This document shows positions 24,724-38,055 of a stretch of 44,146 bases of DNA, in pieces. The stretch's first letter is position 1, and each line of letters starts with the position of its first letter. Under the pieces are notes generated by a model that was not told the origin of the DNA, ran no database searches, and saw nothing but the letters and a program-made list of their open reading frames with translations. The DNA is taken from IMG/VR virus record IMGVR_UViG_2698536573_000002. The stretch is one strand, 5' to 3'. Source of the stretch: a virus. Its lineage: Duplodnaviria > Heunggongvirae > Uroviricota > Caudoviricetes. The translations under genes were made by a program, and so were the position numbers.

Positions 24724-24799
24724 TGGTGGCCCCTACCGGATTTGAACCGATGACCGTGCGATTATGAGTCGCCTGCTCTAACCACTAAGCTAAGGGGCC
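24724..24799 (-). tRNA. tRNA with anticodon CAT, ileX/ileY-like (tRNA-Ile2 type; Met not excluded)
   Basis: 76-nt cloverleaf: acceptor GGCCCCT/AGGGGCC, D-arm GCTTAGTGGTTAGAGC, anticodon loop CTCATAA, T-arm GGTTCAAATCC, encoded CCA. Confidence 0.8.
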
Positions 24800-33930: not shown

Positions 33931-33946
33931 CATGGAGTCTCGACAA

Positions 33947-34600
33947 ATGACTATATCTGTAGGTATTTTCAACGGAAAAGGCGGCGTAACCAAATCAACC
34001 ATTGCTCGTGCTTTAGCAGTTGCTTATGCAAAGGCTGGCTGGAATGTATGCCTGATCGATATGGATGTGCTTAACGGAACGGTAACGCGTTGGGTACAAC
34101 GCAGAATGGCCAACAATATCGAACCTGCAATCGCGGCGCAGCCGTGCGGCACGCCATCACAAGTCCAGAAAATCATCGAATCAGAAGTATACGACCTGGT
34201 TATCGTTGATGGCGGTGCCTACGCATCTGAATCAGTACCGAAGCTCTCTGAATTTCTGGATATGGTTATTTTGCCAACCAGATTCTCTACCGATGACCTG
34301 GAAACCACCGTTAACACAGCTCACGGCATCGTTAAAAAGGGTGTACCAATCAAGAAAATTTGCATGGTGTTTTCCGGCGCGGCTGAAAACGAAGCTGACT
34401 ATATTGAAGCCCAAGAGTACCTGGCTAATACGCCATACTTTGTTGTCGATAAGTACATTCCCCACAAGCCAGCTCTGAGCAAAGCTCAGGATAAAGGCTT
34501 AAGCCTCATTGAGTGCTCATACGTTGCGCCACGCAAAAAAGCAGACGACGTTATTCAGGGGATTATCAACCAGCTTGAGGCTCTGACTACTGCCGCGTAA
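33947..34600 (+). CDS. ParA/ParF-type partition ATPase
   Basis: Deviant Walker A GIFNGKGGVTKST; start at second ATG (GGAG 9 nt upstream); ORF from 33932. Confidence 0.8.
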   Translation: MTISVGIFNGKGGVTKSTIARALAVAYAKAGWNVCLIDMDVLNGTVTRWVQRRMANNIEPAIAAQPCGTPSQVQKIIESEVYDLVIVDGGAYASESVPKLSEFLDMVILPTRFSTDDLETTVNTAHGIVKKGVPIKKICMVFSGAAENEADYIEAQEYLANTPYFVVDKYIPHKPALSKAQDKGLSLIECSYVAPRKKADDVIQGIINQLEALTTAA

Positions 34601-34954: not shown

Positions 34955-35104
34955 ATGTCCGAGCAACAATATACACGGTTACTGAAAACTCGTCTAACCG
35001 ACCTCAAACGGCTGCAAGCTGGTCGCTTATTTGCCCTGCTATCCACCAGGCCAGCATGGGTACGTGAAGCAGTTCTGAAAGGCTTAATGCGCTCCAGCGT
35101 TTAA
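34955..35104 (+). CDS. hypothetical small protein downstream of par genes
   Basis: 49 aa from internal ATG with AGGGGA RBS. Confidence 0.25.
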   Translation: MSEQQYTRLLKTRLTDLKRLQAGRLFALLSTRPAWVREAVLKGLMRSSV

Positions 35105-35112
35105 ATTCAACC

Positions 35113-35136
35113 ATAAAAAAGGCCCCCGAAGGGGCC
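35113..35136 (-). terminator. intrinsic terminator (minus-strand orientation)
   Basis: ggcccc-cgaa-ggggcc hairpin followed by U6 on minus strand, directly after small ORF 35143-35265. Confidence 0.5.
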
Positions 35137-35142
35137 TAATCG

Positions 35143-35265
35143 CTACTTGCTGCTAATGTTTATCGTCACATTCAGAGCGTTATCAGTAATCTTCCAACCC
35201 TCTCCATGTGGCGTAAACAAAGCCCCAGTAACAACGATAAAAATACACATGTAGTATTTTTTCAT
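35143..35265 (-). CDS. small hydrophobic peptide (40 aa)
   Basis: MKKYYMCIFIVVTGALFTPHGEGWKITDNALNVTINISSK; RBS AAGGG; own terminator. Confidence 0.35.
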   Translation of the reverse strand: MKKYYMCIFIVVTGALFTPHGEGWKITDNALNVTINISSK

Positions 35266-35655
35266 TGTGTGGCCCTTACAGGCCGTTTCACGGCATCCCC
35301 ACCGACGAAAATGACGCGAGAGCAAGCACGCTGTTTGTGCCTGCGTGGTACGGCAAGTGGATAATCCTTTCCTGAAAGTCAGTGCCCGGGTGCGAATCGG
35401 CGGAAAGGCCCCAAGCCATATTACACGTCATACCCTTCATAATGAAGGAATAAAAAACGCTTTTATTACATGAGATTACACGTAAATAAGTTAAAAACCT
35501 TCATTTTGCATGAGCTAATGAGCTAAATTTTTTTATATGAATAGTGGACTATTCACCTCAGTTAGGTAAGAATGTAGTTGCTGTTTGTGCTTGCGTGGTT
35601 GTATTAGTACAACGACGTTATGCTGAAAGGACCGCGAATCCGATCAGCACGAAAG

Positions 35656-35685
35656 AACCGTCCTCAATAGGGCGGTTTTTTTGTT
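35656..35685 (+). terminator. intrinsic terminator (plus-strand orientation)
   Basis: aaccgtcc-tcaata-gggcggtt followed by T8. Confidence 0.45.
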
Positions 35686-35695
35686 TCTTCACTCA

Positions 35696-36235
35696 TTAAA
35701 ACAGTCCAAGACCTGTTAATGGCTTCTGATAATCTCGATTATTCATATCAGCGCCGTTATCGACCCAATTTCTATATGCTTCATCGCAACAATACATTAC
35801 AGCAGTTGGAGTATCTGGGATGCCGCCCCCAAATGAGAATCCCATTGAGCTAATGCTAACTCTTTCTAATGGCCTATTTCTCAATGCTTCAAACCCCTTG
35901 CTATTAAAGTAACGCAGCATCAGAGGTAAAAGGTTATCCTCGTCCTGACTGATTGTTCCAGGGAAAAAGTAGTAACCATAACGGTTAAATTCGGGAATAA
36001 GATTTTCTACCAATGACATGAAATTCACTGGAGTAATATTAAGGGCTGTGAAAGCACCAAAAAGGGCGTCAACTGTTAATACAGACTGCCCGTTCTCTAT
36101 CTTTGTCCATGCGTTTGGTGTTTTTCCAGCAGCTTGAGCCAGTACTCCTTGATGCACACCTCTTTCTAGCCTAAGTTCTTTTATGATCATTAGGTGAATT
36201 GTTGAAAAACATGAGTTTTTTGACTGTTCAATCAT
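35696..36235 (-). CDS. XRE-type HTH protein with uncharacterised C-terminal domain
   Basis: 179 aa; HTH IKELRLERGVHQGVLAQAAGKTPNAWTKIENGQ; RBS GGGGA. Confidence 0.45.
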   Translation of the reverse strand: MIEQSKNSCFSTIHLMIIKELRLERGVHQGVLAQAAGKTPNAWTKIENGQSVLTVDALFGAFTALNITPVNFMSLVENLIPEFNRYGYYFFPGTISQDEDNLLPLMLRYFNSKGFEALRNRPLERVSISSMGFSFGGGIPDTPTAVMYCCDEAYRNWVDNGADMNNRDYQKPLTGLGLF

Positions 36236-36419: not shown

Positions 36420-36521
36420 AATGCGCCATTGGTGGACACTTTCCGAGCCGTAGCAAAATCTACGGTCGGGATTGGAACCCCGATAATCATCATGGCGCAT
36501 ACCGCGTTAGCGGTTTTTTTA
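36420..36521 (+). ncRNA. candidate small regulatory RNA (c4-like) upstream of antirepressor operon
   Basis: TTGACA at 36412-36417; terminator accgc-gtta-gcggt + T7 at 36501-36520; short elements complementary to leader near 36603-36634. Confidence 0.3.
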
Positions 36522-36685
36522 TGCGTAAAGCACTGCTACACCCAAATTATGGTGGGGCGTGCGGGGGAGTCGTAAGACTCGCCGGATTCCATGGTGACCG
36601 GTAGTTCCAACCCTGTACGTCTCACCACCCAATGATTGGAACCAGACGGTGGTGAGTATCCTTAACCTTTAAGGGAACTATCACC

Positions 36686-36877
36686 ATGACAAACCTACCC
36701 CATGACTATTACGTCAACCTCGTAAAGATCCTTCTCAAGAAAGCCTCATACGCCGATAAATTCCGCCTGGCTGAAATCATCGAGCGCGAAGCTATGCGCA
36801 TCGCCAGCAACGATAACGCTGTTTCTGTCGCAAAAATCTCCCTCGTAACCAAAGTAGTTATGGGAGGTGCAAAATGA
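36686..36877 (+). CDS. small leader protein translationally coupled to antirepressor (icd-like position)
   Basis: 63 aa; stop TGA overlaps ant ATG (ATGA); RBS AAGGGA. Confidence 0.45.
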   Translation: MTNLPHDYYVNLVKILLKKASYADKFRLAEIIEREAMRIASNDNAVSVAKISLVTKVVMGGAK

Positions 36878-38055
36878 AAACGCTTCCGACCGTTAACACC
36901 CTACAGCCTATCCTGCATAACCAGCTCCCCGTTATCACTACTGAACTACTGGCGCAATTGTATGGAACCGAGCGCCAACGTCTGACAAACAATTTCAATA
37001 GAAACAAGGAACGTTTTATAGAAGGTAAACACTTTTTTAGGATAGAAGGTAAAGAGTTACGAGAGTTGAAGAACAAAAACTCTTTAAGAGTTCCTGTGAG
37101 AGTAGTTAACGAACCATCTTTAAGAGGGTTACAAATTCCCCCGAAAGTTCGCTCCCTCATCCTCTGGACAGAACGCGGGGCTGCACGTCACGCCAAAATG
37201 CTTGAAACTAACCAAGCGTGGGATGTGTTCGAACGGCTGGAAGACAGCTACTTCAACCAGAACGCACAAACGGCCGCGACCGTAACCGTCTCACCAAACA
37301 ATGCTCGTGAGGTTGTCGATACGCTCAACGCCAAACCAATGTATTACGTTAAGGTGTGCAACAACGAGCCACTCACAACCTCAGCCGATGTAGCCCAGGC
37401 ATTCAGCACCACAAACAATTCCATCGTTATGGCCATCGATGCATTACGCATTCCTCGCACAGCTGCGGCACGTCATTTCTTTAAAGAGCAACGACCGCTG
37501 GAAGGAAGCGACCGCGAAATAACAATCTATCGCATGACAAAAGACGGATTTACCTTGCTCATGGAAAGTATCGACGGTCCAGGCGTGAAGGATATCAAGC
37601 TGGCCTACATTGAAGCCTTTAACGCTATCAGCAGCGTGTTAAAGGCAGAATACGAGCGAATGCTATACAACCGACTGTATCAGGAAACAAAGATTATCCG
37701 AACGGCAACAGAACATCATCGGCTATTAACGGAACCAAACTACCGCAAGACACTAATCAAAGAGTTTGACAAGGCGACGGAGAAAACTAAAGCGGCACTA
37801 AATCTACCAACAATGACTAAAGATGATGTGATATCAGCCTTACTTCTTGATCTGCTCAGAAACGTCAGAGCACTTATCAGTTTTGACGAAAACCTGAATC
37901 CTCAGCTCAAGCTACTACCACCGACAGGCAAAGTAGTCGACCAAGCAGATCACAACAGCATACTCAGCGTACTGGATGCAAACCTGCCAGCCAGGACACT
38001 ACAGGAGCTGATAAAAATATCTGCGGATAAACTGGCCGCAGGTGCAAAACCATAA
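36874..38055 (+). CDS. antirepressor (ORF6N/KilA-N-like N-terminal domain plus Rha-like domain)
   Basis: 393 aa; N-terminal LPVITTELLAQLYGTERQRLTNNFNRNKERF and central MYYVKV...TIYRMTKDGFTLLM blocks. Confidence 0.6.
   Translation: MKTLPTVNTLQPILHNQLPVITTELLAQLYGTERQRLTNNFNRNKERFIEGKHFFRIEGKELRELKNKNSLRVPVRVVNEPSLRGLQIPPKVRSLILWTERGAARHAKMLETNQAWDVFERLEDSYFNQNAQTAATVTVSPNNAREVVDTLNAKPMYYVKVCNNEPLTTSADVAQAFSTTNNSIVMAIDALRIPRTAAARHFFKEQRPLEGSDREITIYRMTKDGFTLLMESIDGPGVKDIKLAYIEAFNAISSVLKAEYERMLYNRLYQETKIIRTATEHHRLLTEPNYRKTLIKEFDKATEKTKAALNLPTMTKDDVISALLLDLLRNVRALISFDENLNPQLKLLPPTGKVVDQADHNSILSVLDANLPARTLQELIKISADKLAAGAKP

Follow-up and report, generated by a model that had tools for sequence, protein, structure and literature searches.

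RyfA was first described as a non-coding RNA; work in Salmonella then showed that it is the mRNA for a toxic inner-membrane protein of 38 aa, TimP, whose open reading frame (ORF) starts at +145 and whose toxicity requires the start codon (PMC7667032). Its antitoxin, the small RNA (sRNA) TimR, is transcribed divergently from a gene that lies directly upstream of timP and ends in a terminator, and the TimR 5' end has 18 nt of complementarity to the 5' untranslated region (5'UTR) of timP; the pairing was proved in vivo with compensatory mutations, translation of timP was blocked by TimR in vitro, and the divergent layout was reported for other enterobacteria as well (PMC7667032). The timP 5'UTR folds into four stem-loops (SL1 to SL4), and a 7-bp pseudoknot between SL1 and SL3 is essential for translation; the Shine-Dalgarno sequence is sequestered by SL4, which is opened by a pairing termed site 2-4 (PMC11228461, PMC13000454). 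TimR binds SL2 of Salmonella timP, with G76 protected (PMC11228461). The mechanism has been worked out in these three papers, and derepression at native expression is without a growth phenotype in Salmonella. Here we analysed a 44,146-nucleotide stretch of DNA (the window) from a virus of the Caudoviricetes, IMG/VR record IMGVR_UViG_2698536573_000002, and found at its positions ~35113 to ~35688 what is very probably a timPR-type type I toxin-antitoxin cassette on a phage-plasmid, a reading that we hold at a probability of about 0.88. Computation established the homology of the peptide and both RNAs, the RNA duplex with its covariation and the conserved elements of a structural switch, all described below (Table 1).

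For the toxin mRNA, a scan of the window with all Rfam families returned a full-length ryfA match on the minus strand (134.7 bits, E = 1.9e-34, model positions 1-296 of 296; gathering score 80 bits). The ryfA model scored 129-142 bits in four plasmid variants of the cassette and 134.6-144.7 bits in seven IMG/VR contigs, and in a distant BLASTN search of 5,426 complete E. coli genomes positions 35213-35411 of the window were 69.8% identical to about 2,000 chromosomal loci, which RefSeq labels 'timP: small toxic inner membrane protein TimP'. The mRNA has a folding z-score of -4.1 and is 91-100% identical among 14 plasmid variants, in all of which the toxin ORF is intact, the changes being mostly synonymous, with an in-frame 3-nt deletion in one variant (L006). 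The ORF spans +149 to +271 of the transcript, a Shine-Dalgarno sequence (AAGGG, 35273-35277) lies 8-12 nt 5' of its ATG, and the stem of the terminator that follows it has 7 bp, 6 of them GC (35137-35120, minus strand), before a TTTTTT run. In its layout the peptide is the same as Salmonella TimP, with a basic N-terminus (MKK), hydrophobic residues 4-17 (~14 residues; mean Kyte-Doolittle hydropathy 2.09 vs 2.34 in K-12 TimP) and a polar tail, and the pattern MK..C-I/V-.-L/I-V-S/T-GAL is common to it and the chromosomal TimPs. It aligns over its entire length (1-40 of 40) with the NCBIfam family NF040796 (toxic_TimP; E = 1.2e-4, 22.2 bits; 86.8 bits for K-12 TimP), and a Pfam scan assigned it to no Pfam family. 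A word-indexed search of 5.8 billion protein clusters gave as its sole match an identical unnamed peptide (3 members, 7 contigs), a result that is uninformative on homology because gene callers skip the toxin ORF. The original prediction, made from the letters of the window, had placed here a 40-aa peptide gene with a good ribosome-binding site and a terminator of its own, as we also find (AAGGG; 7-bp stem and T-run), the strand being minus; its statement that the peptide matches no known toxin was wrong, in view of the ryfA match, the end-to-end NF040796 alignment and the 33% identity to K-12 TimP.

Table 1. Features of the cassette and its neighbourhood, in positions of the window
Feature	Positions	Strand	Details
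Toxin mRNA, timP/ryfA-like, ~299 nt	35115-35413	minus	148-nt structured 5'UTR, 40-codon ORF and terminator; Rfam RF00126
TimP-like toxin ORF, 40 aa	35143-35265	minus	MKKYYMCIFIVVTGALFTPHGEGWKITDNALNVTINISSK; ATG at 35265, stop at 35143-35145
Toxin mRNA intrinsic terminator	35113-35137	minus	GGCCCC-UUCG-GGGGCC + U6; from terminator scan; terminal hairpin of the ryfA model
SL4 hairpin	35271-35284	minus	GGCCU-GUAA-GGGCC; mRNA nt 130-143; minimum-free-energy fold; contains AAGGG
Pseudoknot site 3	35300-35306	minus	GUCGGUG; mRNA nt 108-114, SL3 loop
Repeat copy 1, predicted sRNA-binding site	35330-35349	minus	GCTGTTTGTGCCTGCGTGGT; toxin mRNA nt 65-84
Pseudoknot site 1	35378-35384	minus	CACUGAC; mRNA nt 30-36, upper SL1
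Divergent promoter spacer, 166 bp	35414-35579		Between toxin and sRNA genes
Predicted toxin -10 box	35418-35423	minus	TAATAT; 5 nt upstream of where the Rfam match begins
Palindrome, perfect	35434-35448		CCTTCATAATGAAGG; overlaps predicted -35 region of toxin promoter
Palindrome, perfect	35540-35553		AATAGTGGACTATT; overlaps predicted -35 region of sRNA promoter
Predicted sRNA promoter	35545-35550; 35567-35573	plus	TGGACT, 16-17 nt spacer, TAAGAAT; start ~35580
TimR-like antitoxin sRNA, ~103 nt	35580 to ~35682	plus	Homology to K-12 sRNA genes, conserved, folded
Parts of the sRNA	35580-35599; 35622-35649; 35657-35682	plus	5' seed; body hairpin; terminator; also hairpin GUUGUA-UUAG-UACAAC
Repeat copy 2, predicted sRNA 5' end	35580-35599	plus	GCTGTTTGTGCTTGCGTGGT
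Seed class A (window)			sRNA seed GCUGUUUGUGCUUGCGUGGU; mRNA site ACCACGCAGGCACAAACAGC
Seed class B			sRNA seed GCCGCUUGUGCUUGCGUG; mRNA site CACGCAAGCACAAGCGGU
Seed class C			sRNA seed GCUGCUUGUGCUUGCGUG; mRNA site CAUGCAAGCACAAGCAGC
ParA-type partition gene	33932-34600		Just upstream of the cassette
HTH_3/HTH_31 gene, 179 aa	35696-36235	minus	Convergent with the sRNA
isrK RNA	36447-36520	plus	70.2 bits
C4 antisense RNA	36545-36632	plus	84.3 bits
Gene with ORF6N and Phage_pRha domains	36874-38055	plus	Directly downstream of isrK and C4

The 20-bp direct repeat of the cassette is the DNA footprint of a trans RNA-RNA recognition duplex. Its two copies, spaced 250 nt apart, are identical at 19 of 20 positions and are the only matches in the window with three or fewer mismatches (chance expectation 0.01; none of 100 shuffles gave two or more). 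Copy 1 takes in the loop of SL2 (35322-35344) together with its 5' arm and 5' flank, a position equivalent to that of the TimR site in Salmonella timP. At the one position where the copies differ (C/T) the RNAs form a G-U pair and therefore all 20 positions pair, so that the first 20 nt of the sRNA are fully complementary to the toxin mRNA site (19 Watson-Crick pairs and one G-U pair), with a cognate duplex of -41 kcal/mol vs -21.1 +/- 2.8 kcal/mol for 1,000 shuffled seeds. Three seed classes were found within the phage-plasmid family, and the changes that distinguish them occur in both repeat copies together and are compensatory (A-U to G-C) or G-U-forming. When seeds and targets of phage-plasmid and chromosomal loci were pooled in one alignment (16 distinct sequences, 18 intermolecular pairs), the pairs were 97.9% paired over the 16 distinct loci, a percentage that is inflated by the choice of the sRNA register that maximised pairing, and 13 of the 18 pairs were changed on both sides, a count that is not much inflated by that choice. 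Neither the observed pairing nor the covariation score was reached in any of 500 shuffles, and sliding the partner by 1-3 columns lowered the pairing to 23-49%.

The plus-strand RNA predicted to begin with repeat copy 2 is, as judged from its sequence, a TimR homologue. The two sRNA genes next to timP in E. coli K-12 both align with its body hairpin (GCUGAAAGGACCGCGAAUCCGAUCAGCA) and terminator, its folding z-score is -5.6, and it is 93-100% conserved among the 14 plasmid variants. The predicted fold ends in a terminator hairpin, AACCGUCCU-CAAU-AGGGCGGUU, at 35657-35678, followed by a U-run; a simple terminator scan did not list this hairpin. A degenerate motif of the body found 18 enterobacterial chromosomal loci in eight genera (Escherichia, Shigella, Citrobacter, Kluyvera, Superficieibacter, Pseudocitrobacter, Salmonella arizonae and Buttiauxella), 16 of them with a ryfA match, which in 15 of the 16 is opposite in strand to the motif and mostly ~115-120 nt away from it. 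The irregular locus is that of Salmonella enterica subsp. arizonae (1180-1458), where the ryfA match is shortened (272 nt) and its 5' end is overlapped by the motif on the opposite strand. A TimR-like body and terminator are also present on the IncF conjugative plasmid pKV1 of Klebsiella variicola (1500-1557), where no ryfA match was detected within 1.5 kb even at a relaxed threshold, and E. coli pCREC-544_3 (32 kb; 165-310) has kept the sRNA, isrK and C4 and lacks the toxin part; these may be orphan antitoxins or remnants. Below-threshold Rfam matches to Phe-leader, PhrS and Atu_C8 were rejected as chance or generic hairpin-plus-terminator signals.

These assignments bear out the near-perfect 20-bp direct repeat (35330-35349 and 35580-35599, 19/20) and the plus-strand terminator (35656-35685; hairpin at 35657-35678 and U-run) of the original prediction, the limits of which (35113-35690) nearly coincide with the ends of the cassette as given by conservation among the 14 plasmid variants. 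The elements that it had placed in a single untranslated region of ~400 bp are real, but the region itself resolves into the toxin 5'UTR (35266-35413, minus strand), the spacer and the sRNA gene. Likewise, a type I toxin with an antisense RNA was rightly suspected and can be specified as a timP/TimR-type module, but the antitoxin is a divergent trans-acting sRNA and not a cis-overlapping one, and the repeat, for which the original prediction gave no explanation, is the recognition duplex itself.

The elements of the timP structural switch are conserved in the toxin 5'UTR. The structure written from the window sequence was 94.3% paired across 17 distinct 5'UTRs, with 16 pairs changed on both sides, which was matched in none of 500 shuffles. 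With the pseudoknot sites assigned here from their description in the text of PMC11228461, the SL1-SL3 pseudoknot consists of 7 bp that are 100% paired in the 17 sequences, with 3 of the 7 pairs changed on both sides, and the K-12 pseudoknot lies at the same alignment columns (CGCUGGC with GCCAGUG). The hairpin that contains AAGGG corresponds to SL4 of timP as described in PMC11228461; its five pairs are 100% paired in the 17 sequences, and two of them are changed on both sides. The site 2-4 pairing, GCCGU (nt 59-63) with ACGGC (nt 127-131), is likewise 100% paired in all 17, with no both-side changes and hence no covariation support. Many of the compensatory changes come from the phage-plasmid clade, which, for all its divergence in sequence, therefore appears to have kept the whole switch.

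By prediction, the plasmid system and the chromosomal one are to a large extent independent. Counted as contiguous in-register pairs, cognate seeds and targets form 17-20 pairs, vs at most ~10 for the plasmid seed with the K-12 or Shigella timP sites and 7 for the K-12 TimR seed with the plasmid site. Predictions of duplexes between whole RNAs, such as -33.6 kcal/mol for the K-12 proximal sRNA with the UTR of the window, were rejected, the helices being discontinuous with large internal loops. The K-12 chromosome has two tandem TimR-like sRNA genes (~1040-1175 and ~1360-1490 of the locus extract), separated by the Rfam 'IS128' RNA; the distal copy alone is fully complementary to K-12 timP (19 contiguous pairs), and the proximal copy matches instead the target site of Shigella flexneri (RyfA1-type).

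The spacer between the two genes is far more variable than the RNAs themselves: in the divergent variant classes it is 53-62% identical, vs 91-98% for the toxin mRNA and 93-96% for the sRNA. Both boxes of the predicted sRNA promoter are kept in all variant classes within this otherwise variable spacer, and the relative of the cassette in Buttiauxella (see below) has TTGACA-16-TAAAAT at the place of this promoter. On the toxin side, a TAnnAT hexamer is found 4-5 nt upstream in plasmid variants and chromosomal timP loci. The two perfect palindromes, each conserved in some variant classes and not in all, could be operator sites. An inverted repeat (35535-35548 and 35735-35748) is 86% complementary; as regards an operator network, the window held no further copies of either palindrome or of this inverted repeat.

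The element that carries the cassette is a ~48-kb phage-plasmid of E. coli, in contrast to the chromosomal location of the usual timP/TimR. The window is mostly collinear with circular plasmids, such as one of E. coli ATCC 25922 (NZ_CP009073), which matches a 601-bp query spanning the cassette (35100-35700) at 99.3% identity, and also with Yersinia phage vB_YpM_39 (OR545053), deposited as a phage of Y. pestis EV76-CN. As a circular plasmid the ~48-kb element is deposited from E. coli, E. albertii, E. fergusonii and Klebsiella aerogenes; its phage form is infectious and was isolated on Yersinia pestis EV76. Cassettes of 82-100% identity were found in ~60 plasmid records (Escherichia, Klebsiella), three Yersinia phages and seven IMG/VR contigs; the carrier plasmids are non-mobilizable and mostly ~46-52 kb in size, with a single record of 94 kb, and the element is present in ~1.3% of complete E. 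coli genomes (71/5426). A distant DNA search of the phage collection gave no match to the cassette in deposited phages beyond the three Yersinia phages, P1 included. Two small ORFs lie between the ParA-type gene and the cassette, and on the other flank an optional helix-turn-helix (HTH) gene is followed by the isrK/C4 antisense-RNA region 5' of the ORF6N/Rha-domain gene, which looks like the antisense-controlled antirepressor region of the immI type of P1/P7. The 179-aa HTH gene is an insertion/deletion polymorphism, missing from several variants (L003, L005, L007), in which isrK/C4 comes directly after the sRNA terminator. The vB_YpM_39 record annotates a HigB2-like toxin, a Hin invertase and a ClpP-like protease. 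Elsewhere in the window, a tRNA gene (24727-24799, minus strand, 65.8 bits) may be the tRNA-Met annotated in the related Yersinia phage record.

Since homology is accompanied by conservation of every tested RNA element, the mechanism can be transferred from Salmonella, and by analogy with the experiments made there the peptide would be toxic, targeted to the membrane and repressed at translation. The ~299-nt minus-strand mRNA would encode a small hydrophobic inner-membrane toxin of the TimP family, its ribosome-binding site being locked in SL4, and its translation would need, as in Salmonella timP, a long-range pairing to open SL4 as well as the SL1-SL3 pseudoknot. Pairing of the 5' end of the divergent sRNA with SL2 would abolish the active pseudoknotted conformation and thereby block translation of the toxin. 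As to its role, the genomic context of the cassette, after the parA operon and beside the immunity region, suggests that it most likely helps to keep the phage-plasmid in the cell line: in cells that have lost the plasmid, the toxin mRNA, being stable, would outlast the short-lived sRNA, TimR being less stable than timP mRNA in Salmonella (PMC7667032). The position beside par genes and strong purifying selection on both RNAs fit such post-segregational stabilisation.

Several points, besides the choice of register mentioned above, weigh against this interpretation of the cassette. TimP derepressed at its native level does not slow the growth of Salmonella (PMC7667032), which weakens the case for post-segregational killing, and the HigB2-like type II toxin in the same phage-plasmid family, known from the related phage record, could give addiction alone. 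Nor can toxicity be taken for granted in a peptide that scores below the curated NF040796 cut-off (22.2 vs 45 bits) and shares only 33% identity with K-12 TimP. Both promoters with their transcription starts are predictions, and a consensus promoter scan called neither. A role in phage defence or related to lysis is possible. The sub-threshold NF040796 score, however, marks a divergent subfamily and does not exclude membership; it is also a plausible reason for automatic annotation leaving the peptide unnamed on plasmids.

The alternative that survives best, which we consider somewhat unlikely, is a timPR homologue without a maintenance role, acting in abortive infection, in the exclusion of competitor phages or through membrane damage in the lytic cycle, or carried as a neutral passenger. 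Phage exclusion by hok/sok-like type I toxins is cited in PMC13000454, the C4/isrK antirepressor immunity region is next to the cassette, and the closest relative outside the family adjoins DarA/DdrB anti-restriction genes on a P1-like Buttiauxella contig; a phage-related or passenger role would also agree with chromosomal timPR being without a growth phenotype at native expression (PMC7667032). Deletion of timPR in Salmonella, however, left P22 infection unaffected, a position directly after a par operon is typical of stability modules, and a neutral passenger is at odds with the strong purifying selection on both RNAs. Doubtful too, and to be taken as a tentative extension of the timPR reading, is the idea that a mobile timPR clade, comprising the 48-kb family and the P1-like Buttiauxella element, has become a functional module of phage-plasmids, recruited for addiction or competition. 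Plasmid and host seeds and targets would not cross-pair, and a host system could therefore not neutralise the plasmid toxin; antitoxin transcription might in addition be wired to the regulatory state of the phage via the palindromes overlapping the two -35 boxes. Were this so, timPR would for the first time have a natural setting with a selectable phenotype.

It is improbable that the 300-nt RNA is mainly a regulatory non-coding RyfA acting on host genes, as proposed for uropathogenic E. coli (UPEC), avian pathogenic E. coli (APEC) and Shigella, with the ORF secondary. Effects of RyfA on stress resistance, biofilm and virulence are reported in PMC8205139, PMC10664665, PMC5333039 and PMC13188913, but no variant has lost the ORF, in which synonymous changes and an in-frame deletion are seen, its position (+149) is conserved, as is the apparatus hiding the ribosome-binding site, and toxicity in Salmonella needs the start codon (PMC7667032); the regulatory-RNA and toxin-mRNA roles are in any case compatible with each other. 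There is very little to be said for the 20-bp copies being protein sites at the DNA level, such as iterons or the partition centromere of the neighbouring parA system: parA is close by and direct repeats are typical of iterons and centromeres, but the copies number just two, at a distance of 250 bp, the first being within the ryfA match and the second coinciding exactly with the 5' end of the TimR-like sRNA, chromosomal timPR loci without par genes show the same layout with entirely different repeat sequences, and the copies differ by transitions that give G-U pairs, which fits RNA pairing and not a shared protein site. Equally implausible is an RNAI-like antisense regulator of plasmid replication, suggested by a weak match of the plus-strand RNA to Rfam RNAI (RF00106; 35586-35683, 25.9 bits, E = 0.03), since this score falls far short of the gathering score (47), no RNAII or ColE1-type origin overlaps the sRNA, the homology to TimR is much clearer, and an equally weak match on an unrelated TimR-like fragment indicates that the signal is probably the generic shape of three hairpins plus terminator.

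The cassette is a mobile member of the known timP/TimR family and not a new kind of system; what is new is a divergent timPR clade that lies beside partition genes on a phage-plasmid also isolated as infectious Yersinia phages. The literature searched held nothing relevant that links ryfA/timP with phage-plasmids or prophages, or on the names of the Yersinia phages, and in the ~60 plasmid and three phage records examined the cassette is without annotation of its own, the features recorded beneath it being the neighbouring genes. This exposes an annotation gap, in which the cassette is unannotated and its peptide nearly absent from protein databases. The phage-plasmid copy is a natural system for testing whether the module stabilises the plasmid or acts in exclusion or phage competition, and its co-changing seed classes are natural compensatory mutants for studies of sRNA-target specificity.

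Among described systems with a similar layout, tisB/istR-1, zorO/orzO, shoB/ohsC and dinQ/agrB of E. coli likewise have an adjacent, divergent and non-overlapping antitoxin gene and ~18-20 nt of complementarity far upstream of the ribosome-binding site, seen as a direct repeat in the DNA, but they have no sequence homology to the cassette, and mRNAs of the tisB/istR-1 type need nucleolytic processing and/or a standby site, whereas those of the timP type use a structural switch without processing (PMC11228461). The hok/sok system (parB) of plasmid R1 shares a small membrane toxin, an unstable antisense RNA and an extrachromosomal replicon, and is the model for the proposed post-segregational killing; it differs in that Sok is cis-overlapping and acts via the mok reading frame and that hok mRNA needs 3' processing, none of which applies here: no hok/sok Rfam family was detected in the region even at E values up to 10, and the sRNA and toxin genes do not overlap (166-bp spacer). 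The closest described system is timP/TimR (ryfA/STnc2070; RyfA-RyfB in Shigella and E. coli; PMC7667032, PMC11228461, PMC13000454), which has in common with the cassette a ~300-nt mRNA matching the full-length ryfA model, a 38-41-aa peptide with a hydrophobic N-terminal half and a start at ~+145, and a divergent upstream sRNA with a 5' end complementary to SL2 over 18-20 nt and then an intrinsic terminator, as well as a homologous sRNA body hairpin, the ribosome-binding site sequestered by SL4, the SL1-SL3 pseudoknot and the site 2-4 complementarity. The two differ in location (phage-plasmid vs the sseA-sseB chromosomal locus), in ryfA score (135-145 bits here vs 227-317 in chromosomal copies) and in the distance of the sRNA body from the toxin 5' end (195-217 nt here vs ~115-120 in chromosomal loci). 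The sole intermediate ryfA score (162 bits) belongs to the contig DASXXQ010000285.1 (6782-7362) of a Buttiauxella metagenome-assembled genome, whose peptide (MKQYLCVLLVVSGALFSTSGEGWKFTHNSLNVTINVSGK) is clearly closer to the window peptide than the chromosomal TimPs are, and the C-terminal motif GEGWK.T.N.LNVTIN.S.K is common only to the window peptide family and this P1-like contig. The Buttiauxella cassette adjoins genes with DarA_N/DarA_C and ddrB-ParB domains, typical of P1-like elements, so that a second mobile-element lineage may carry the module; together, the sequences of the window cassette and its Buttiauxella relative suggest a mobile-element clade of timPR.

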